Counted from the first letter of the stretch, positions 51,191 to 64,000 are shown. The stretch is 64,000 nt of DNA from a bacterium (GCA_021815445.1 JAKAGM010000001.1:235527-299526), one strand, 5' to 3'. Made by a program: numbers and translations. The notes: generated by a model not told the origin, from the letters alone.

Positions 51191-52003
51191 TTATTTTTCT
51201 TTTTTACTTTTAGTTGCCTTCTTTTTTTCCTTCTTCGGTTCTGAAGAATCCTGTGCTTTTACTTTAACTTTATCAGCGGGCTGGTCGGCCTCATCAATTT
51301 TTTTATTCGCCGGCTCATTCATGCTGGTTGAAATAAACTGAAAATGCTCCACTAGGATCTGTGCCGATTGCTGCAATGCTTCAAGGGGCGTAATGGATCC
51401 GTCTGTCGTAACCATCATCGTCAACTTATCATAGTTGGTCATTTGCCCGACACGGACGTTCTCAACTGAAAAGTTTGCGTTTCGGACTGGCGAGTAGATC
51501 GCATCAAGAGAGATTGTACCATGTTCATAGGAGCGCTTTTCAGCTGCCTCAATTGGCACATACCCTCTTCCCTCTTCAATAACTATCTCCATTTCGAGTT
51601 CAGCTGTTTTGTCCGTAAGAGTTGCTATCCGAAGCGCAGGGGTCGTTACCTCCACATCACTGGGACAGTTTATATCCTTGCCTGTAACAGTTTTTTCACC
51701 TTTTACTTTTAATGTTACTTTCGATTGGGCGACATTATGCAGTTTGAAACGTAGACTTTTGACGTTTAAAATGATCTCCACAATATCCTCCTTAACCCCT
51801 GGCAATGTGGAAAACTCATGAGTAACACCTTTAATTTTTACCGAGGTGGCAGCTGCTCCCGGCAGTGAAGACAGCAGTACACGGCGAAGGGCATTACCCA
51901 GAGTAGTTCCGTACCCGGGAGCGCAAGGTTCTATAATAATCAGGGCCTGATTCTTGTCCTTCGATTGTTTCTCTACTCTTGTTGGCAGTGGCAATGGTTG
52001 CAT
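51191..52003 (-). CDS. rpoA: DNA-directed RNA polymerase subunit alpha. Only the N-terminal domain is present and the alpha-CTD is replaced by a lysine-rich tail.
   Basis: Alpha-NTD motifs (IEPCAPGYGTTLGNALRRVLLSS). The protein is 270 aa and ends ...AQDSSEPKKEKKKATKSKKEK. Confidence 0.85.
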   Translation of the reverse strand: MQPLPLPTRVEKQSKDKNQALIIIEPCAPGYGTTLGNALRRVLLSSLPGAAATSVKIKGVTHEFSTLPGVKEDIVEIILNVKSLRFKLHNVAQSKVTLKVKGEKTVTGKDINCPSDVEVTTPALRIATLTDKTAELEMEIVIEEGRGYVPIEAAEKRSYEHGTISLDAIYSPVRNANFSVENVRVGQMTNYDKLTMMVTTDGSITPLEALQQSAQILVEHFQFISTSMNEPANKKIDEADQPADKVKVKAQDSSEPKKEKKKATKSKKEK

Positions 52004-54069: not shown

Positions 54070-55899
54070 CTACGATGTGACAACGGCTTTGATTCTCCTG
54101 ACTCCGGCACTGGAGGACTTCTCTGAAATTATTTGAAACGCGCCGAGCTGGTTTGTATGTTGGACATGGGGTCCACCGCAAATTTCCCTGCTGAAATCCC
54201 CCACCGAGTAAACTGTGACTACAGGCGGGTACTTCTCACGAAAAAAAGACAATGCGCCGCTTTTTATTGCATCGTCGAGCGGCATTGATTGAGAAGTGAC
54301 GGGCAAATCTGACAAAATCACCTGATTCACCATTTCTTGCACCTTCGCGAGTTGCTCCTTGGTAAGCATGCTAGGATGCTCAAAGTCGAAGCGGAGTCTC
54401 TCTGAATTTATATCTGATCCTTGCTGGCGGACATGATCTCCAAGCACCGAGCGCAGGGCCTGATGGAGGAGATGAGTAGCGGTATGAAGCTTTGTCATAC
54501 TCCATCGGGCCTGCGGATCAAGATCCCGGGACGGAGCCCCTTGTAGCCCGTGGCCGCCAAATTTCTTTTCCGACATAGCACGCGACTTTTCCTGGTGGGC
54601 ACGAACCGCCTCATCAAACTCTGTTAATGAAAATTCATAGCCAGCGCGCTTTATGCGGTCAGGCGATATTCCGTACGTAGAGTAAAGAGTAAATGCATCT
54701 TGAGCTGATATGTCACGAACTGAAGGCCTGCCATGGCCAGGTTCAGAAGTTGTTTTTTTATGTTTTAAAAACTTCGATATGACTTCATCGACCTCAAGCG
54801 CAAGAATTTTTTTGTATGACTCATCCTCGCGTCGCACGGATGCACCGTAGACTTCAAGAGAGTTCGGCAGCTCAGGATAGAACGATTGATACATCAAAGC
54901 GACAGAGGTCAGCAATGCGTCAAATGAAAAATGAGGGAAAAGATATTGGTCTGATGCTCGCCGAAATATCCTCCGCAGGATATACCCCTGCTCTTTATTC
55001 GAGAAAGCGACTCCATCGGATAGTAAAAAAAGAACACCTTTTATATGGTCTGCCACTATCCTTTTCCTTTTCTCATCCTCATTCGGATTCAAAGATCCAA
55101 AATTCTTATCCGCACTGATATTGCGAAGCAGCTCCCGAAACAGATCAGTCTCAAAGACATTTGACACATTCTGTGAGACCATAGCCAGGCGCTCGATTCC
55201 CATTCCCGTATCGATATTTTTTGCCGGGAGACTCGTAAGAGTGCCCTTTTCCGATTGGTGAAACTCGGTAAATACGAGATTCCAGATTTCAACAAACCTC
55301 CCGCACGAACAGTTCGGCAAGCACAAGGATCCTTTCTCGCAGGGAATCTCCGTAAGGTCATAATGGATCTCCGCACACGGACCGCATGGGCCTGACGCAC
55401 CAGTTGGACCCCACCAATTATCCTCGCGACCAAATGACGCTATAGAGCTTTTTGGAAGATATGTACTGAGGAGTTGGAAGGCCTCAGTGTCAGGAGATGT
55501 ATCTTTATCACCTTTATAGTAGGTAGCAAATAACCTTTTTTTGTTCAGGTGAATCTCTTTGGTGAGAAACTCAAACGCAAATCCAATGGACTCTTTCTTG
55601 AAGTAGTCACCGACAGAAAAATTTCCGAGCATTTCAAAAAAAGTCAGATGAGTGGAGTCGCCGACTGATTCAATATCGGATGTCCTAAAAACACGCTGGA
55701 TGGAGACAAGGCGTTTTGCCCCGAAATCTTTGGCAGGGTCTTTGCTCCCGGAAAAATAGGGCTTCAATTGCTGCATCCCTGCAGATGTAAGGAGCACGCT
55801 CCTGTCATCTGCCGGCACCAGACTAGATGGCGGTATGACCCTGTGCTGTTGCTTCATGAAAAACGCGAGGAATTTTTTTCGTAGTTCTCCGGAAGTCAT
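54070..55899 (-). CDS. alaS: Alanine--tRNA ligase (short form lacking the C-terminal C-Ala domain)
   Basis: Catalytic core plus an editing domain (HTATHLL...H). About 609 aa measured from MTSGELRKKF. Confidence 0.85.
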   Translation of the reverse strand: MTSGELRKKFLAFFMKQQHRVIPPSSLVPADDRSVLLTSAGMQQLKPYFSGSKDPAKDFGAKRLVSIQRVFRTSDIESVGDSTHLTFFEMLGNFSVGDYFKKESIGFAFEFLTKEIHLNKKRLFATYYKGDKDTSPDTEAFQLLSTYLPKSSIASFGREDNWWGPTGASGPCGPCAEIHYDLTEIPCEKGSLCLPNCSCGRFVEIWNLVFTEFHQSEKGTLTSLPAKNIDTGMGIERLAMVSQNVSNVFETDLFRELLRNISADKNFGSLNPNEDEKRKRIVADHIKGVLFLLSDGVAFSNKEQGYILRRIFRRASDQYLFPHFSFDALLTSVALMYQSFYPELPNSLEVYGASVRREDESYKKILALEVDEVISKFLKHKKTTSEPGHGRPSVRDISAQDAFTLYSTYGISPDRIKRAGYEFSLTEFDEAVRAHQEKSRAMSEKKFGGHGLQGAPSRDLDPQARWSMTKLHTATHLLHQALRSVLGDHVRQQGSDINSERLRFDFEHPSMLTKEQLAKVQEMVNQVILSDLPVTSQSMPLDDAIKSGALSFFREKYPPVVTVYSVGDFSREICGGPHVQHTNQLGAFQIISEKSSSAGVRRIKAVVTS

Positions 55900-55940
55900 A
55901 GGTGTAGTGTAGCAGAAAAGCTCTGATAGCACTATTACCG

Positions 55941-57005: not shown

Positions 57006-57066
57006 AACGATAGCATTGATTTTCTATAAAAAACGACAGCTAATGGGGCTGTCGTGCACGAAGGAG

Positions 57067-57279
57067 TTAATCCGCGACAATGTGGTAGTGCTCCAGCGTG
57101 AAAGGCGGATCGAGAACAGGACGTTTTGAACCGACATCGATGACCGTCCCATCATCCATAACTACAATGAAGTAGGGATCGCATCCTGCTCCACCCTCAA
57201 CCGGGTGAATCCCAACCCCGAGTTTTCGGAATAGATCCGCGTCATTGCCCGCAACAATAGTTCCCGTAATATTCCGCAT
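57067..57279 (-). CDS. Small hypothetical protein (70 aa)
   Basis: ORF only. No recognisable motif. Confidence 0.3.
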   Translation of the reverse strand: MRNITGTIVAGNDADLFRKLGVGIHPVEGGAGCDPYFIVVMDDGTVIDVGSKRPVLDPPFTLEHYHIVAD

Positions 57280-57367: not shown

Positions 57368-57844
57368 TTACCTCTGGTCTGGCTCTGCTCGTTTGCGGGG
57401 CGAATACAGCAACCAAAGTCCGACTCCTACCAAAAGCAGAGGCCACAAGCTTAGCTGGCTGAAAGTAGATAAAAAGATTATGGCTGAAGTGAATGTAAAT
57501 ATCCATGCTGGGATGAGCAAACCGGTAATTTTTTTGCCAATAAAATAGGTAACGAAAAAGCCGATTGCGATAAAGAATGTATATACAAACGACGTTTCAT
57601 TGGCATAACGCCAACTAACAAGCACCATCGCAAAGAAGTAAAGGCCTAATAGCAGAAAGAATGTCGCTGGGAGCAGAAATCCCCATGCGCCTTTAGATTT
57701 CCATAAAGAAACGAAAAAAAGTCCGAGGATAATGAAAATAATCGGCCAAAGATCAATATGTATCCTGAATCCAATCTGGTTAAGGAGAAGCAATGCACCG
57801 ATCAGGATTATGAAAAGACCGGCAAGGTTTCTGTTTGAAGTCAT
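57368..57844 (-). CDS. Small polytopic membrane protein (about 5 TM helices)
   Basis: 158 aa, strongly hydrophobic. It lies 15 nt downstream of the ATPase gene. Confidence 0.45.
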   Translation of the reverse strand: MTSNRNLAGLFIILIGALLLLNQIGFRIHIDLWPIIFIILGLFFVSLWKSKGAWGFLLPATFFLLLGLYFFAMVLVSWRYANETSFVYTFFIAIGFFVTYFIGKKITGLLIPAWIFTFTSAIIFLSTFSQLSLWPLLLVGVGLWLLYSPRKRAEPDQR

Positions 57845-57859
57845 AAAAATTTCAAGATA

Positions 57860-59524
57860 CTAAGAATTATTAGGCCGTTCAACCCTCCCTTGAAAAAGAG
57901 GTTTAGTAGGAGGCTGCGGAGGCAAATTCTGATGGCGTTCTTTTTTACCAGGATCAGTCTGTGCGTGCCGTTGATGAAATGGGGTCGGTTTTCTCGCAAG
58001 AGCTTCCTTGAGAGAAATAGCCGGCTCTGTCGGCTTAACCTCTACAGGAGCTGCGTGAAACGACTGTGGAGAACGCTGCGGGGGCTTTGCAGGCCGCTGA
58101 TGCTCATCATGACGCGGGGTTTGCTCGTTCTGCCCCCGTGGTGGAAACCGATGAATATTCTTCTTTCCCGACGGTGAATAGGCCGTCTCAATATCTCTTG
58201 AAGCGATATTTTCCTCTTCGGCGGTAGCACGGTACACTTCATCCACCCCGCTCCAGCGTAAAATCTTTTCTTCTACTACACTCCTTGGCTTACCATAACG
58301 TTCACGAGAAACCTGAACCACTTTTTCACGGTTGCTCGTTTTTCCGGAAAGCGGGGGCAATGTGGTTGCAGAAAAAGGTTCCGAAGCAACCCCATCAATC
58401 ATCAATTTCATATACACGTTATACTTCGTGAGATTAAGCAGATCTTCCTCCACAAATGTAGGAAAGAACTCTTTTGCCAAAAACTCAGCATCGGCTGCCC
58501 CAATTCTAAAGCACATAATAGTGCCTACATTGCCGAAAACCGCTGGACGAACTTCTTCACTGAGTTGCTCGATATACTGATGCGCAAGTATCAAGTCCAG
58601 ACGGTATTTTCTCGCTTCAGATAATATATTTGCAAAGCTTTCAGTGGCAAAATTTTGAAACTCATCAACATAAAGAAAGAAATCTTTCCGCTCCTCTTCA
58701 GGAATGTCGACACGACTCATCGCGGCAAGCTGTAGGCGGGTAACCATCATGGCTCCCAAAAGGGATGAACTGTCCTCCCCGATTCTGCCCTTCGCCAGAT
58801 TGAGCAAAACAATTTTCTCGTTGTCCATCAGACTGCGGAGGTCTATAGTGCTGTTCGGCTGGCCTACGATATTGCGTATCAGCGCGCTCGAAAGAAACTG
58901 GCCTACTTTGTTTTGGATTGGCGCTATTGCTTCATTTCTGAACTTATCATTATACGCTTCATACTCGTCCATCCAAAATCCCTTAACGATGGGGTCAGTT
59001 ACTTTATCGATAACCTTGCGGCGATATTTCTTATCCACTAGGATACGCGCGACACCAAGCATTGTAGAGCCCGGATATTCAAGAAGTGCAAGTATGCAGT
59101 TATTTAGAATGTACTCCATGCGTGCGCTCCATACTCCCTCCCAAATTTTTGTGAATACTCCCATGAGGCCCGATGCTACGAGATGCCGTTGCGTCGCGTC
59201 CACACTTTCCAAAACATTAAATCCGATAGGATATTCCACATCCGCCGGGTTGAAGTAGACAACGTCATTAATGCGGTAGGACGGAATGTACTCGACAATC
59301 TTTTCGACAAGATCTCCATGGGGATCGACCACGGCCAGACCGCGTCCCGCACGAATATCAGCGATGATCATATTTTCCAGAACTGTGGTTTTTCCCATGC
59401 CGGTCTTTCCTATTAAATACATATGCCTTCGTCTATCGTCAATTTTTATGCCAAAACGCCGCTCCTGATTACGGTAGTTTGTCATTCCAACCAAAGTTAT
59501 TTGGTTTGTAGCGTCGTCTGCCAT
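57860..59524 (-). CDS. FtsK/HerA/TrwB-superfamily P-loop ATPase of the VirD4/TraD (type IV coupling protein)-like type. It has no TM segment and carries a long Pro/Gln/Arg-rich C-terminal tail.
   Basis: Walker A YLIGKTGMGKTT, Walker B DFFLYVDEFQNF, and LILAHQYIEQL. The last ~130 aa are low-complexity. Confidence 0.55.
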   Translation of the reverse strand: MADDATNQITLVGMTNYRNQERRFGIKIDDRRRHMYLIGKTGMGKTTVLENMIIADIRAGRGLAVVDPHGDLVEKIVEYIPSYRINDVVYFNPADVEYPIGFNVLESVDATQRHLVASGLMGVFTKIWEGVWSARMEYILNNCILALLEYPGSTMLGVARILVDKKYRRKVIDKVTDPIVKGFWMDEYEAYNDKFRNEAIAPIQNKVGQFLSSALIRNIVGQPNSTIDLRSLMDNEKIVLLNLAKGRIGEDSSSLLGAMMVTRLQLAAMSRVDIPEEERKDFFLYVDEFQNFATESFANILSEARKYRLDLILAHQYIEQLSEEVRPAVFGNVGTIMCFRIGAADAEFLAKEFFPTFVEEDLLNLTKYNVYMKLMIDGVASEPFSATTLPPLSGKTSNREKVVQVSRERYGKPRSVVEEKILRWSGVDEVYRATAEEENIASRDIETAYSPSGKKNIHRFPPRGQNEQTPRHDEHQRPAKPPQRSPQSFHAAPVEVKPTEPAISLKEALARKPTPFHQRHAQTDPGKKERHQNLPPQPPTKPLFQGRVERPNNS

Positions 59525-59527
59525 AGT

Positions 59528-60913
59528 TTAAACAACAGGTAAATTTGCCGGTGGGCCTCCTCTTTTCTCAGGAGGTACTTCGCGATCCTTTGGATGCTTT
59601 ACCGACGGATACAGCGTTTCTGTTGGAAGCTTTGACGGGGGTTCGCCTTTCTTTGTCTCAGCTTTTTGGATTTGGGGAGCTTTTACTGTGAGTACAGGGA
59701 AATGAAACAGACTGGCAAGCTCCTCAGTGTTCAGGACGTACCTATTTCTCCCCCTCTTGAGGCTCCGATATCTATACCCCCAAAGAATCCTGCGTTTTCT
59801 CCACAGGAGCCTTCGCCGAACATTGATGTAATGCACCTTCGTCCGGACTCTTTTGTCTATTTTGAACCCGTTGAGGTCAAGGGTATTGAACTGCATAATT
59901 GCCCCTGCCACAGCGTCGACACCCTTCGGGGAGTTGTAAACCTCTTTCTTTGCCGTGTAGATCATGCGAATCTTGGAGGTAAAAGCGATCTTCGATATTT
60001 TCAACCCCACTGACTCGACAACGGAGCGTTCGTCAGGTGATAAGTGCTGCATCAGGGAAGGCCATTCACGGTCTTTTGTTTTCTTTTCAGCCTCAGGGCT
60101 CGCCAGTATACCTGCGGTAAAAGACTCAGAGAGTCCTTTGGTAATCTCGCGGGGGAAATACATCCAATCCGACTTCTTTTCTTCGGACTTTTTTCCGATA
60201 AGTTTCCTTATTGCGTGCAAACCCCGTTCCCGCCACTCAGCGTTTGCAGGGGTGATAACTATTTGGAGCCAAAGTTGCTCTCCCGGACCAAATCGAGACA
60301 TTATTTCAAGAAGCGAAGCCATCGGATCAAGAAATGTCTGTGTCAGCGGATGTTCAAAAAAGGGATACGTTCTAATTGGGTAAATATCCTTTCGTAACAT
60401 CTTGAACTCCGTCCCATAAAGATTGTACTCAGTATTTTTAGGGTAGTCGAGAGGTTTTGGCACGCTATCAATATAATCCTCGACTTCGGTGATTTCTGAA
60501 TCCGGGTACTGAGCATATATCGCGGCCTCGACTAAATCACGGAAACGCACGGGAGTACGAATAAGAAATTGGACGTACCCCTCGATACTCACTATCTCAA
60601 GACTGAACGAAGGCTGTGAAAAACCTTCAATATAGCGCGCGTGGAGTGTCCCTTTTTTCTGTACGGCGCTGAGATGAGCGAAAATATGCTCAACAGCTTT
60701 TGGGCTTTGCTCATTATTCTTCGGCACATCAATCGCCAAAAGAGCATACTCGATTTTCGCGTCGTACATGTTGCGTATATATTCCAGCCAGCCCTGCCAT
60801 ATCCCATTGATGACGGTAATCACTAAAATAACCCATCCACCATGCTGGATGAGAAAAAGCATTGCCTGAAAAGGATTGTTAATATCAGCAAGCGCTGATA
60901 AATCAAAATTCAT
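59528..60913 (-). CDS. Hypothetical protein with one N-terminal TM helix and a basic Pro-rich C-terminal tail; partner of the ATPase
   Basis: 461 aa. The TM helix is WVILVITVINGIW. It lies 3 nt upstream of the ATPase gene. Confidence 0.5.
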   Translation of the reverse strand: MNFDLSALADINNPFQAMLFLIQHGGWVILVITVINGIWQGWLEYIRNMYDAKIEYALLAIDVPKNNEQSPKAVEHIFAHLSAVQKKGTLHARYIEGFSQPSFSLEIVSIEGYVQFLIRTPVRFRDLVEAAIYAQYPDSEITEVEDYIDSVPKPLDYPKNTEYNLYGTEFKMLRKDIYPIRTYPFFEHPLTQTFLDPMASLLEIMSRFGPGEQLWLQIVITPANAEWRERGLHAIRKLIGKKSEEKKSDWMYFPREITKGLSESFTAGILASPEAEKKTKDREWPSLMQHLSPDERSVVESVGLKISKIAFTSKIRMIYTAKKEVYNSPKGVDAVAGAIMQFNTLDLNGFKIDKRVRTKVHYINVRRRLLWRKRRILWGYRYRSLKRGRNRYVLNTEELASLFHFPVLTVKAPQIQKAETKKGEPPSKLPTETLYPSVKHPKDREVPPEKRGGPPANLPVV

Positions 60914-60937
60914 TTTTTAAAAAAAAGAACTATGCTC

Positions 60938-62065
60938 TTAGTGTGGCTGCGCGAGTATGTAGGTACCATCCTGTTGCTTGTGAAAACGGGACTTGTCGGT
61001 TAAAGCGAGATAGACGGTATTCTTTTTTACTACACGTTGCTTCAGCACCAGTTCGACAATCTCATGCCGGCTCAATGGTCTCTGTTCCTTTTGCAGAACA
61101 TCAACAATGACATCGGCAACAACGCCAGGTCTGTACCCCCATTCACGAAGAGCGTAGATGCCCCGTCCGATTAATACATACTGCTTATTGAGTATAAGCT
61201 CATTGTGGACAGTCGGCGGATAAGCTTTTCTATCATCAAATCCCATTTGATTAATAAGTTCAGTGATTTCAGAAAAATGCATTGGCTTTCCTCGTTTTTT
61301 GAGCACAAGGCTGATTTTATCGTTCATTCGCTTCGGGGTGATACTCCCCCAGTCTACCAGCCCGTACTCGTTGTAAGGGTTTTTGCCAATCTTTTTACTT
61401 ACCTCAATATATGAGCGGATAGCATCATCATTAAGCTGACTCTCGTGTTGTTGAAACAGCGTTCTTGATCTCGTCTGTGAAAGAAGCTCATGAAAAGACA
61501 TGGGCTTACCATTTTTTGTAATGATATCAAGCAGTTCCAATACCACAGTATCAAGAAGATAGAGAGTAAAAGACCGAAGCTGCCACGAAGGTCTATAAAC
61601 AGCTGACTCACGGATTCTCTTGAACTTAGGATCAAGAAGCTCCTGAAGAATAAAAACAACCGCGCGCCTGTTTTGCACCGTCTCACCTGCAGTTTGTAGA
61701 ATATGCCCGAGCAACGATTGTTCAGACATCACTCCTCCATACTGTTCAAGAACTGAAGTAATCGTGTCTTCAACGGGTTTGATAAGAGCTCCGAAATTCT
61801 TCAAATTTTTTATTTTTTTAATGGCGGTGCTTTCTATCTGTCGGATACGTTCACGCGTTACCTTGTAAGCGAAACCTATTTGCTCGAGGGTCTCACTATT
61901 TCCCCCATTAAGCCCGAACCTTCGACGCAAAACGTCCTCTTCTCGGTTTAGAAGATTTTTTAGCAACACCGAAACCGCGTCAGCAGGATGAAACTGCTCA
62001 ATTTCAAGGGTCTTTTTGCTCGAAATCACTTTATCGAGTATCGATGGAGAGTTATCGTCTGTCAT
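60938..62065 (-). CDS. Sigma-70 region 4 domain protein (no region 2) fused to an approximately 270-aa C-terminal helical domain
   Basis: LNREEDVLRRRFGLNGGNSETLEQIGFAYKVTRERIRQIESTAIKKIKN is a region-4-type HTH. The ATG is at 62065; the ORF track starts at TTG 62071. Confidence 0.55.
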   Translation of the reverse strand: MTDDNSPSILDKVISSKKTLEIEQFHPADAVSVLLKNLLNREEDVLRRRFGLNGGNSETLEQIGFAYKVTRERIRQIESTAIKKIKNLKNFGALIKPVEDTITSVLEQYGGVMSEQSLLGHILQTAGETVQNRRAVVFILQELLDPKFKRIRESAVYRPSWQLRSFTLYLLDTVVLELLDIITKNGKPMSFHELLSQTRSRTLFQQHESQLNDDAIRSYIEVSKKIGKNPYNEYGLVDWGSITPKRMNDKISLVLKKRGKPMHFSEITELINQMGFDDRKAYPPTVHNELILNKQYVLIGRGIYALREWGYRPGVVADVIVDVLQKEQRPLSRHEIVELVLKQRVVKKNTVYLALTDKSRFHKQQDGTYILAQPH

Positions 62066-62078
62066 ACTCAATGTGTTT

Positions 62079-62107
62079 AGTATAGCATAATGTCATACGT
62101 GTGTCAA
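62079..62107 (-). promoter_or_regulatory. Consensus promoter on the minus strand: TTGACA (62107-62102), 17 nt spacer, TATACT (62084-62079), then 13 nt to the ATG at 62065
   Basis: Read directly from the reverse complement. Confidence 0.6.
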
Positions 62108-62170: not shown

Positions 62171-62192
62171 AAAAAATGGCCAATATTGGCCA
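62171..62192 (-). terminator. Perfect 16-bp palindrome TGGCCAATATTGGCCA (62177-62192) followed on the minus strand by TTTTTT; likely the secDF terminator
   Basis: Palindrome and T-run read directly, 25 nt after the secF stop. Confidence 0.5.
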
Positions 62193-62216
62193 TCGCTTCG
62201 TCTTTGCGACTAACTT

Positions 62217-63113
62217 CTACTTGCGCGACGTAAATTTCTCCCATGTCACAAGCAAAGGACTTGCGACAAAAATAGACGAATATGTCCCTACGGAAATACC
62301 GAGAATAAGCGCGAGCACGAAATTACGAATAGTGTCGCCACCAAAAAAGTATAAACTAATGAGAACCAGAAGAGTGATAAGGGATGTATTCAGGGATCTC
62401 ACGAGAGTCTGATTTATACTTTCATTCACTGTCATTTCATAAGTCTCCGCAGGATTTGTTCGAAGTCGTTCGCGAATTCTGTCAAATACAACGATAGTGT
62501 CATGTACAGAGAAACCGAGGGTTGTGAGCAGTGCGGTAACAAAAAGGGAATCTATCTCAAATTTGAAAAAATATCCCATGATGGCAAACGCACCGACGAC
62601 AAAAAGCACATCGTGAATAAGCGCGAGCACCGCCATAACACCATATGTCCATGGTCGAACTGGGCCGATCGAAACTTTGCGAAAAGCAAAGGATATATAC
62701 AAAATAATGAAAAAAAGCACCACAACCATTGCTGTAATCGATTTCTGGCGCAGTTCTTTCCCAACAGTAGGACCTATGGATTCAAAACTTACTTCATGGG
62801 CACCGCCAAAGTCACCAGATAGCTTTTCTACTACTTTTGCCTGATCAACTTCGCTGATGTCCTGTCCACGAATCACAATATCTTGTTTTTCGATCGGCTG
62901 GGCAAAGAAGTCGCCGCTAAGGATACCCTGTAAAGACTTTGTGACATCCTGAGCTGTCGGACGAATGCCGGTAAATCCTACCCTGAGAAGACTGCCACCC
63001 GTGAAATCTATGCCCGGCCTGAGACCGCCCATCATAAGCATAATAAATCCGGGAATAAGCGCAGCTAAGGAAATTCCGTACCACCACTTCCTTTTTTGTA
63101 TGATATTAAACAT
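62217..63113 (-). CDS. secF: Protein translocase subunit SecF
   Basis: ...GIDFTGGSLL... and the C-terminal TM bundle. Confidence 0.85.
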   Translation of the reverse strand: MFNIIQKRKWWYGISLAALIPGFIMLMMGGLRPGIDFTGGSLLRVGFTGIRPTAQDVTKSLQGILSGDFFAQPIEKQDIVIRGQDISEVDQAKVVEKLSGDFGGAHEVSFESIGPTVGKELRQKSITAMVVVLFFIILYISFAFRKVSIGPVRPWTYGVMAVLALIHDVLFVVGAFAIMGYFFKFEIDSLFVTALLTTLGFSVHDTIVVFDRIRERLRTNPAETYEMTVNESINQTLVRSLNTSLITLLVLISLYFFGGDTIRNFVLALILGISVGTYSSIFVASPLLVTWEKFTSRK

Positions 63114-64000
63114 TCTGTTGGTTCTTAACTATTTCACCCTTTTTCACTCCGACAAGCCAGGGACGGGATTCGAGCCATGAGCCGCCAAAGATGCGAAGAA
63201 AAGTCCGCGTGATGGTTATGGCGGAAAACATGCTGACAACAATGCCGATACCGAGGGTAATCGCGAAACCTTTCACAATACTCGTCCCCAACCAGCCCAG
63301 GATAAAAACAGTAATCAGGCTTGAAACATTGGAATCGCGTATCGAAAGCCATGCGCGTTTGAAGCCTTCCTCAATAGAAAAGTTCATCGGCTTGCCGAGG
63401 CGCAATTCTTCTTTCGTCCTTTCGAAAATAAGCACATTGGCGTCGACTGCCATCCCTATCGATAAAATGAAACCAGCCACGCCGGCGAGCGTCAGGGTAA
63501 CCGGCAGAAGCTTAAAAATCGCCAATACAAGCAGGGTATAAATAAGCAATGAACATACGGCAAGAACCCCGGGGAAACGGTAATAAATAATCATGAACAC
63601 CGAAACCAAGAGAACGCCGAGCAAACCCGCGAAAAGGCTCCTGTCGACTGATTCTTGGCCCAGCGTTGCGCCGACGGTTTGCTGGGAAACGAGGGTTATT
63701 GGAATCGGCAGCGCTCCGGCATTCAAACGCCGTACAAGCTGCTTTGCCTCGTCAAGAGTAAAATTGCCCTCAATACTTGCAAGCCCACCGGTAATTTTTT
63801 GTTGAACAACGGGCGTCGATATGGGAGATCCGTCAAGATAAATTGCTAAGGGCTTTCCGACATTGCGGCCAGTGATGTCCTCAAAAAGTTTTGCGCCTTC
63901 TGTATTAAACTGGAGCGAGACGTAGGGTTTGCCGGTATTTTTGTCGAAAGCAACGTCGGCACGCTTCAGTTGTTTACCCGTCAGTCCGGTCTGAATAAAT
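63106..64000 (-). CDS. secD: Protein translocase subunit SecD (C-terminal part; the gene continues past the window end)
   Basis: ...NVGKPLAIYLDGSPISTPVVQQKITGG... can be read upstream of the annotated M in the same frame with no stop before 64000. Confidence 0.8.
   Translation of the reverse strand, partial: FIQTGLTGKQLKRADVAFDKNTGKPYVSLQFNTEGAKLFEDITGRNVGKPLAIYLDGSPISTPVVQQKITGGLASIEGNFTLDEAKQLVRRLNAGALPIPITLVSQQTVGATLGQESVDRSLFAGLLGVLLVSVFMIIYYRFPGVLAVCSLLIYTLLVLAIFKLLPVTLTLAGVAGFILSIGMAVDANVLIFERTKEELRLGKPMNFSIEEGFKRAWLSIRDSNVSSLITVFILGWLGTSIVKGFAITLGIGIVVSMFSAITITRTFLRIFGGSWLESRPWLVGVKKGEIVKNQQNV

Follow-up and report, generated by a model that had tools for sequence, protein, structure and literature searches.

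In a 64,000-nucleotide (nt) stretch of bacterial DNA (GCA_021815445.1 JAKAGM010000001.1:235527-299526; the window, from whose first letter all positions are counted), four closely spaced genes, g1 to g4, lie on the minus strand (Table 1). Judged from their homologues, g2 and g3 each encode one half of a single coupling-protein architecture: g3 encodes a VirD4/TrwB-type ATPase without a transmembrane (TM) segment, and g2 encodes a single-TM protein of the DUF8128 family. We conclude with moderate confidence that the two together are one VirD4/TrwB-family coupling protein split in two, in which g2 would anchor the soluble g3 motor and a substrate would be fed to a membrane channel, likeliest that of a type IV secretion system (T4SS).

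g3 is a VirD4/TrwB-type ATPase without a membrane anchor

The family of g3 was determined by profile searches. Its best Pfam match was TrwB_AAD_bind with an E-value of 6e-13 (48.8 bits, cut-off 20.5), and the T4SS-DNA_transf (28.3 bits, cut-off 20.1) and TraG-D_C (23.3 bits, cut-off 22) models also scored above their cut-offs. NCBIfam matches also supported a VirD4/TrwB type. DUF87 scored 28.8 bits, weaker than TrwB_AAD_bind. No match was obtained with FtsK_SpoIIIE at E-values up to 0.1 or with the AAA_10 and CagE models. The only solved relatives found by sequence in the PDB were TrwB and DotL. When a profile of 38 g3 homologues was aligned using hhalign, R388 TrwB was matched over 265 columns with a probability of 93.6% and an E-value of 2e-7 (g3 amino acids (aa) 27–323, TrwB aa 118–393), whereas R388 TrwK/VirB4 was aligned at the P-loop only, with a probability of 1.9%. 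Thus, we define g3 as a VirD4/TrwB-type and not a VirB4-type ATPase; the VirD4/TrwB assignment is in agreement with an earlier interpretation of this DNA made without database searches (the sequence-only reading). The aligned span of TrwB takes in its all-alpha domain, and by this alignment g3 appears to carry an all-alpha domain inserted in the nucleotide-binding domain as well.

The Walker A, Walker B and AHQ (A314-H315-Q316) motifs recognized in that reading were all confirmed and are invariant in the alignment of g3 homologues. Residues 1–425 form an extremely conserved core. The tail varies, and in some homologues it holds a zinc-ribbon domain; aa 421–554 of g3 are rich in Pro, Arg, Glu, Ala and Gln. 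The protein begins ∼38 residues ahead of Walker A, and hydropathy analysis detected no TM segment or other hydrophobic segment, as had been predicted. The public gene call for g3 uses a different start codon.

Compared with the features of the coupling-protein family, g3 has the P-loop nucleotide-binding domain, with scores over the family thresholds. An N-terminal TM anchor is not found on the same chain but sits on g2, and no T4SS (VirB4) or relaxase gene was found alongside in the window as scanned or in the flanks of the related loci. The actinomycete and haloarchaeal relatives described below do have a VirB4 and relaxase context. Features of HerA were not seen, as DUF87 was not the dominant match of g3 and no NurA-like neighbor was present.

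The partner protein g2 has a predicted VirB4-like fold

The g2 protein was assigned to DUF8128 (PF26449) by a precomputed match on an identical protein (P0121) and its homologues. Our local copies of Pfam and NCBIfam gave no match, but that Pfam copy may omit PF26449. We found no mention of DUF8128 in the literature searched. The sequence-only reading had described g2 as a single-TM partner with a basic, Pro-rich tail. The N-terminal TM helix and the tail (aa 406–461, with 12 Pro and 8 Lys and a conserved PxNLP at its end) were both recovered; the description as a plain TM partner has to be given up in favor of a large folded domain between the two.

An AlphaFold2 model of g2 built from 47 homologues was confident, with a predicted local distance difference test score (pLDDT) of 81 and a predicted template modeling score (pTM) of 0.76. 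In a Foldseek search with this model 13 TrwK chains were top-ranked, with E-values from 1.8e-5. As g2 is without a P-loop and no other P-loop ATPase appears in the Foldseek list, TrwB and FtsK being absent, we take the match to be to the N-terminal domain of VirB4. The model thus predicts a VirB4-N-terminal-domain-like fold of ∼350 aa for g2. A VirB4-type C-terminal ATPase is not present on g2. Sequence profiles of g2 gave no link to solved structures, to TrwK/VirB4, to TrsD of pSK41 or to the pRE25 TraI homologue.

Fused and split relatives outside Patescibacteria

A tblastn search with g3 against plasmids returned 339 records, mainly from Streptomyces, Bacillus and haloarchaea. The same search with g2 gave no match, and plasmid relatives of g2 were instead reached via the g3 matches and a hidden Markov model (HMM) scan of their flanks. 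An 812-aa coupling protein of an Embleya plasmid has the g3-like ATPase as its C-terminal half, and its gene is clustered with those for PrgI (VirB3-like), a VirB4-like ATPase, Replic_Relax and NlpC/P60. The N-terminal ∼400 aa of the 812–817-aa Embleya and Streptomyces proteins aligned with DUF8128 over 346 columns, TM helix included, with a probability of 96.3% and an E-value of 1.8e-9, using a profile to which the significant Bacillota and haloarchaeal sequences had been added. On a Priestia megaterium megaplasmid, an open reading frame (ORF; L090:4750-6363) contains DUF8128 (HMM E-value 3e-17, aa 26–354) followed by the start of a g3-type ATPase (aa 417–528), and the same fusion is found on a Pontibacillus megaplasmid. 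Both of these fused genes (L090 4750-8418 and L092 7908-11918) are split into 3–5 ORF pieces 150–940 bp apart; they could be decaying pseudogenes or be interrupted by inserted elements.

In haloarchaea the two parts are encoded separately. A DUF8128-like gene lies directly 5′ of a coupling-protein-like gene on plasmids of Haladaptatus, where both follow a gene for a VirB4-like ATPase, and of Halobacterium hubeiense. Motifs held in common include (V/L)Q(I/V)xxRPA, DP(M/L)xxLL and ELAxxxH(F/L)P, the last of these right before the ATPase.

From these fused and split relatives we conclude that the series TM helix, DUF8128 and VirD4-type ATPase is an old architecture, occurring as one chain in Actinomycetes and Bacillota and as two in Patescibacteria and haloarchaea. 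The split explains the “missing” TM anchor of g3. The sequence-only reading had suggested that the anchor was moved onto g2 and/or g4. The fused homologues support this for g2; it is not supported for g4, which occurs in this genome and one relative only. The same reading had called the locus “not a canonical T4SS,” which is correct locally but not for the fused or adjacent relatives, which lie in T4SS-type clusters of Actinomycetes and haloarchaea.

A plasmid of Sulfitobacter mediterraneus (NZ_CP081110; L086 6992-8179) carries a stand-alone 395-aa g3 homologue that is 41.6% identical to the patescibacterial protein. It adjoins transposases, has no DUF8128 gene nearby, and may represent a horizontal transfer into an alphaproteobacterium.

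Conservation and gene order in Patescibacteria

The named homologues came from Patescibacteria, mainly Kerfeldbacteria. An alignment scan of one genome per GTDB species gave at least 582 DUF8128 relatives, and a profile search of 1.84 billion proteins gave 3,121 DUF8128 representatives at 50% clustering; none of the 150 matches listed from the latter search was fused or annotated. We counted gene neighborhoods in the best 80 of the at least 582 loci, all patescibacterial by title or gene content. Some loci of patescibacterial content are titled “uncultured Gammaproteobacteria” (binchicken co-assemblies), “Candidatus Binatia” or “Acutalibacteraceae,” which are probably placeholder or wrong labels.

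g3 was found immediately 3′ of g2 in 59/80 loci, g1 immediately 5′ of g2 in 46/80, and g2 was flanked by both in 38/80, so that the conservation of gene order anticipated for the module holds for g1-g2-g3 widely in Patescibacteria. Directly upstream of the module, secF was present in 41/80 loci within a 900-bp window, or, by a 500-bp window, in 40 of the 71 loci whose upstream sequence was long enough. The adjacency of g1 and g2 also holds in 21 loci where secF is not upstream, and in 5 that lack an adjacent g3. Between secF and g2, g1 is absent in 25/80 loci, in arrangements of the Magasanik-/Uhrbacteria type. The order YkuD-SecD-SecF-g1-g2-g3 was also seen in five other loci (L002, L003, L085, L094, and L095), and a sixth, shorter contig has SecF-g1-g2 with the next gene cut by the contig end.

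Within the same loci the median identity to the proteins of the window was 65.6% for g3, as compared to 46.8% for SecF, 45.5% for MnmA, 42.7% for alanyl-tRNA synthetase (AlaRS), 41.2% for g2 and 39.8% for g1. For each of g1, g2 and g3 there are thousands of homologues, and they are therefore real genes. Taken together, g1-g2-g3 is a highly conserved core set and not part of a mobile element.

Upstream of the module, the extended synteny FG-GAP/YkuD L,D-transpeptidase-SecD-SecF-g1-g2-g3 is kept across distant Patescibacteria (L001, which is the present genome, to L003, L085, L094, and L095; window positions 62217-64000). The SecD protein carries an inserted rotamase (peptidyl-prolyl isomerase, PPIase) domain, and in L002 a heliorhodopsin gene (1857-2642) lies just 5′ of secD.

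The locus and its transcription unit

Table 1. Features of the g1–g4 locus, with residue numbers and window positions.
Feature	Residues (aa)	Position (nt)	Strand	Remarks
g1		60938-62065	minus	375 aa from ATG
g1, primary-sigma domain 4	~27-87	61805-61987	minus	
g1, HARE-HTH / RNA polymerase delta-like domain	~247-311	61133-61327	minus	third winged helix
g2		59528-60913	minus	461 aa, Pfam DUF8128
g2, TM helix	17-35	60809-60865	minus	hydropathy, single TM
g2, predicted VirB4-N-terminal-domain-like alpha/beta domain	~55-405	59699-60751	minus	
g3		57860-59524	minus	554 aa, TM-less VirD4/TrwB-type coupling ATPase
g3, Walker A GKTGMGKT	39-46 (G39-T46)	59387-59410	minus	invariant in g3 homologue alignment
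g3, Walker B DFFLYVDEFQNF	281-292 (D281-F292)	58649-58684	minus	invariant in g3 homologue alignment
g3, variable Pro/Gln/Arg-rich tail	426-554	57863-58249	minus	
g4		57368-57844	minus	158 aa, LiaF-TM family membrane protein
70-aa ORF		57067-57279	minus	between g4 and terminator; called as gene in L001
Promoter TTGACA-17-TATACT, extended -10 TG		62079-62107	minus	11/12 positions match
Upstream terminator-like hairpin		62175-62194	minus	8-bp stem, 4 GC pairs, TTTT tail; 3′ of secF
Downstream terminator-like hairpin		57033-57055	minus	8-bp stem, 5 GC pairs, TTTTT tail; ahead of mnmA

Our ORF calls returned the same four minus-strand genes as the sequence-only reading, and the gaps of 24, 3 and 15 nt between g1/g2, g2/g3 and g3/g4 follow from their coordinates. 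The two terminators bracket the genes, which defines a transcription unit of g1-g2-g3-g4 and the 70-aa ORF that is separate from secDF and mnmA. The promoter proposed in front of g1 was also confirmed. Promoter-like sites are not in overall excess in the region (10 found, 8.3 expected), but in at least 15 related loci a pattern scan detected the site CTTGAC-N15-TGCTATAYT directly in front of g1, which argues that the g1 promoter is not a chance occurrence. The almost leaderless transcript is a different matter. In this genome exactly 13 nt separate the −10 element from the ATG; in relatives the spacing ranges from 13 to ∼75 nt, and the near-leaderless layout is therefore specific to this genome and not conserved. 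The g2 and g3 genes are in one reading frame, joined by TAA ACT and then ATG (59522-59530). Programmed read-through from g2 into g3 was considered and is unsupported, as the ORFs of relatives overlap or use other frames.

g4 belongs to the LiaF-TM family (Pfam E-value 7e-9) and has 5–6 TM segments by hydropathy, so it is indeed the membrane protein it had been taken for. It had also been counted as a member of the module, and in this respect the data point the other way. Among 83 loci g4 lies downstream of g3 only in this genome (L001) and in L005; elsewhere the gene after g3 encodes a histidine kinase, an aminotransferase, MnmA or another protein. As it is confined to this genome and one relative, g4 is neither a conserved part of the module nor the lost anchor. 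The 70-aa ORF matched no family in Pfam or NCBIfam and was seen in this genome only. The best explanation is that g4 and the 70-aa ORF are lineage-specific passengers.

The remainder of the window is of housekeeping character, with genes for tRNA synthetases, MreBC, PBP2, Ddl, Alr, a polysaccharide cluster, ribosomal proteins, RpoA, AlaRS, MnmA and SecDF. It has 42 ORFs of at least 250 aa. A Pfam scan of 30 further ORFs of this size, of which 3 had no Pfam match, detected no T4SS, type IV pilus, competence or relaxase genes, in line with the sequence-only reading.

Two of the neighboring genes are short forms. RpoA (51191-52003, minus strand) has 270 aa, with matches to RNA_pol_L and RNA_pol_A_bac and none to the alpha C-terminal domain, and may be a truncated alpha subunit; this could matter given the RNA-polymerase-binding-type modules on g1. 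AlaRS (54070-55932, minus strand) is a short form of ∼595–620 aa with the tRNA-synt_2c and tRNA_SAD domains only.

g1 combines a sigma domain 4 with winged helices

The sequence-only reading had described g1 as a sigma-70 region 4 followed by an unknown helical domain. The N-terminal part was borne out. Pfam matched Sigma70_r4 and HARE-HTH in g1, aa 30–87 are 47% identical to residues 543–600 of Escherichia coli sigma70, and the segment VTRERIRQIE is identical in both, its recognition-helix residues being invariant across 46 g1 homologues. The recognition helix of sigma70 region 4.2 reads the −35 hexamer. The “unknown” part can be replaced by a specific prediction, as an AlphaFold2 model of g1 has four winged-helix domains in tandem after aa 90, including the HARE-HTH. 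In NCBIfam, RpoD-type models matched aa 29–87 only, the sigma models fell within aa 6–99 and far below their cut-offs, and the RNA polymerase delta model TIGR04567 scored barely above its cut-off. No sigma region 2 was found by Pfam, where Sigma70_r4 was the only sigma match, or in the AlphaFold2 model, and hydropathy gave no TM segment. Being without region 2, g1 is not a sigma factor, which agrees with the earlier view that it is not a full one.

With primary sigma factors g1 thus shares a domain 4 whose recognition helix reads VTRERIRQIE, and its HARE-HTH, a probable delta-like domain, recalls the RNA polymerase delta subunit (RpoE). It differs from sigma factors, as it has no region 2 or 3, and from the delta subunit, as it has four tandem winged helices and apparently no long acidic C-terminal tail.

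Three roles of g1 may be considered. By analogy with the relaxosome accessory proteins that serve plasmid coupling proteins, g1 may bring DNA to the motor, or it may control the operon via its own −35 element. Alternatively, it may be an RNA polymerase factor that shares the operon and nothing else with g2 and g3. According to this last explanation, g1 would be an accessory factor, either delta-like and equipped with a sigma-4 module or acting as a −35 competitor, and would be functionally unrelated to its operon mates, as in ribosomal-protein operons. We regard this as quite possible. The explanation is in accordance with the TIGR04567 match above cut-off, with the 47% identity of the sigma domain to that of E. 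coli and with the 25 loci in which g1 is absent between secF and g2. Further, no g1-like protein is found beside the pair in Actinomycetes, Bacillota and haloarchaea, where the neighbors are region-2 sigma factors or generic HTH proteins. On the other hand, the adjacency of g1 and g2 outlasts change of both flanks and even relocation of g3, as in L055, L056, L058, L074 and L041, and the conserved promoter precedes g1, not g2. The sigma factors near the Bacillota homologues were also considered as a parallel to g1, and were rejected as ordinary sigma factors with region 2.

Proposed mechanism and alternative explanations

We propose that the ancestral protein had the order TM helix, DUF8128 with a VirB4-N-terminal-domain fold, and VirD4 nucleotide-binding and all-alpha domains, and that in Patescibacteria and haloarchaeal plasmids the chain was broken in the linker between DUF8128 and the ATPase. 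In this mechanism g2 would reside in the membrane with the VirB4-like domain on the cytoplasmic side, and a soluble g3 ring, presumably a hexamer, would be docked at the membrane by g2. ATP use by g3 would drive a nucleic-acid or protein substrate toward a membrane channel, for which the most economical candidate would be the T4SS that Patescibacteria encode elsewhere in the genome. g1, co-transcribed from the conserved promoter, would either serve the motor as its DNA-binding adaptor or its regulator, or be a protein associated with RNA polymerase that shares the operon. A T4SS is the simplest channel, as outside the phylum every relative that could be interpreted belongs to a T4SS-type cluster, and g2-g3 may be the coupling protein of such a T4SS.

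Quinonero-Coronel et al. (PMC12102498) report that most Patescibacteria have a T4SS elsewhere in the genome. According to the same paper, VirD4-type coupling-protein homologues are present in 2,918 of 3,035 Patescibacteria genomes (5,713 proteins), VirB4 in 2,417 and relaxases in 103. These orphan coupling-protein homologues very probably belong to the same gene family as g3.

Several observations weigh against our proposal. No T4SS genes lie within the window as scanned, ∼15 loci have g2 without adjacent g3, and the likeness of g2 to VirB4 is a structural one with empty sequence profiles. In the published survey, 148 of the 5,713 coupling-protein homologues are near virB4, the homologues occur in 96% of genomes as compared to 80% for VirB4, and relaxases are rare (PMC12102498). 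The coupling-protein homologue of S. epibionticum, possibly an orthologue of g3, is reported there to be dispensable, while the T4SS is essential. Above all, the conservation of g3 is far above that of SecF, MnmA and AlaRS, unlike that of plasmid coupling proteins, and this suggests a core function in the cell. The detachment from virB4, the wider spread than VirB4, the rarity of relaxases, the dispensability and this conservation together keep a T4SS-independent core function in play as an unlikely but not negligible explanation.

Such a function could have arisen if g2-g3 had been exapted as a machine that moves or remodels nucleic acid at the membrane, for example DNA or RNA taken in from the host, or the chromosome of the cell itself, with g1 coupling it to DNA or RNA polymerase. 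We consider this less likely than our proposal, though it is the strongest competitor as to the function of g2 and g3. It would account for a g3 that is conserved above the housekeeping genes of the same loci and for the housekeeping context, with YkuD, SecD and SecF upstream and tRNA synthetases or MnmA downstream. It would also fit homologues that are more frequent than VirB4 and nearly always far from virB4, the near absence of relaxases, and the statement of the survey's authors that an exaptation of coupling-protein homologues cannot be excluded (PMC12102498). The combination of two RNA-polymerase- or DNA-binding modules in g1, with the −35 recognition helix kept, is likewise in agreement with it. 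Against it, every non-patescibacterial relative with interpretable context is in a T4SS- or conjugation-type cluster, and no second membrane channel component is conserved beside g2-g3. Moreover, the gap between 96% and 80% could partly reflect genome incompleteness, and the position next to secDF may be a gene order passed on by descent that carries no functional meaning.

A more specific form of this idea, to which we give a still smaller chance, is that g2-g3 is a near-universal, vertically inherited housekeeping nucleic-acid translocase of Patescibacteria, which g1 would direct to RNA polymerase or promoter-like DNA by means of the −35 recognition helix of its sigma domain 4 and its delta-like domain. 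If true, it would serve in the processing or import of host-derived nucleic acid or in clearing DNA or RNA polymerase at the membrane, and this would be a new cellular role for the coupling-protein family.

It is very improbable that g2-g3 is an analog of FtsK/SpoIIIE, that is, a membrane-anchored DNA pump for chromosome segregation during cell division in which the winged helices of g1 take the part of the FtsK gamma domain. The membrane anchoring, the membership in the FtsK-HerA superfamily, the core conservation and the winged-helix-rich partner would all suit such a pump. Yet g3 is matched by TrwB-type models and not by FtsK_SpoIIIE, ftsK is annotated in the patescibacterium TM7x (bioRxiv 10.1101/2022.03.25.485537), and the patescibacterial coupling-protein homologue reported on is non-essential (PMC12102498). 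We therefore rejected a replacement of FtsK on profiles and literature. An anti-phage defense system, suggested by PADLOC matches of g3 to MADS mad8 (6e-16) and weakly to HerA-type defense ATPases and of a region-4 segment of g1 to MzaA (2e-12), is the least credible explanation and was rejected on context, as these matches are confined to the generic core of the ATPase and to sigma region 4, g2 has no PADLOC match, no methyltransferase, nuclease or other effector is nearby, and the genes are near-universal and vertically conserved in a fixed housekeeping synteny, unlike defense islands.

We return to the split coupling protein as our preferred explanation. Of the results that would have refuted the sequence-only reading, namely an FtsK- or HerA-type profile assignment of g3, a gene order that is not conserved or a full sigma factor in g1, none was obtained. 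Overall, what that reading observed is confirmed, and its interpretation is borne out in part.

Relation to published work and known systems

Patescibacteria make up a large share of bacterial diversity and live as epibionts that depend on host material. Their T4SS is essential in the one species tested, and yet its own gene cluster has no recognizable coupling protein (Wang et al., PMC10633639). The orphan coupling-protein homologue now gains an anatomy, with an obligate-looking partner of predicted VirB4-N-terminal-domain fold, fused counterparts in the T4SS-type clusters of other phyla, and a sigma-4/delta-like operon mate. Our results also suggest that in one subfamily of coupling proteins the layout of VirB4 in two domains is preserved, a point of relevance to the origin of coupling proteins from VirB4. 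As g3 is above SecF and AlaRS in conservation, it is a good genetic target in tractable Saccharibacteria for learning what these cells move across their membrane.

The module had been proposed as undescribed, and this claim has to be narrowed. The ATPase family is already known in Patescibacteria from the orphan coupling homologues (PMC12102498), and pIP501 provides a two-protein precedent (PMC4981023). In the literature searched we found neither the partner and its fold described, nor the fused and split relatives in other phyla, nor an operon of the three genes. The word “sigma” is absent from the main text of PMC12102498, and the passages there that contain “N-terminal” name no partner protein, TM-less state, DUF8128 or fused relatives.

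The canonical coupling proteins (TrwB of R388, VirD4, TraD, and DotL) have in common with g3 the P-loop domain, the all-alpha region, the TraG-D_C segment and a variable C-terminal tail. TrwB differs in having its own N-terminal TM domain, which in the present system is found on the 461-aa g2, and in being without a VirB4-N-terminal-domain-like domain such as that predicted for g2. Unlike the canonical proteins, g2-g3 is chromosomal, belongs to the core genes, does not adjoin T4SS or relaxase genes, and has an unusually conserved ATPase.

Separation of the motor from its anchor has a parallel in TraI/TraJ of pIP501, where the gene for a TM-less VirD4-like ATPase directly follows that for a small membrane protein, whose proposed role is to bring the ATPase to the membrane (PMC4981023). 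TrsK of pSK41 is a further case, as its chain opens with the ATPase domain. The pRE25 TraI homologue has 143 aa and no similarity to DUF8128 (probability 0.7%), and g3 scores 44.5 against the CD1115 family model NF045973, for which the cut-off is 250. We regard the pIP501-type split as analogous to that of g2-g3, and the two as different subfamilies. As for VirB4 (TrwK), g2 is predicted to have the fold of its N-terminal region, with no similarity at the sequence level. TrsD is like g2 a stand-alone VirB4-N-terminal-domain-like protein encoded next to a T4SS-family ATPase (PMC12102498); it has no sequence-level similarity to g2, and the partner of g2 is a VirD4-type rather than a VirB4-type ATPase.

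Also close are the long coupling proteins of actinomycete T4SS-type elements (Embleya and Streptomyces) and of Bacillota megaplasmids (Priestia and Pontibacillus). They have the same order of TM helix, DUF8128 and g3-type ATPase, with an identity of 32–37% in the ATPase. In these bacteria the protein is one fused polypeptide, whereas in Patescibacteria it is split and detached from T4SS-type clusters.

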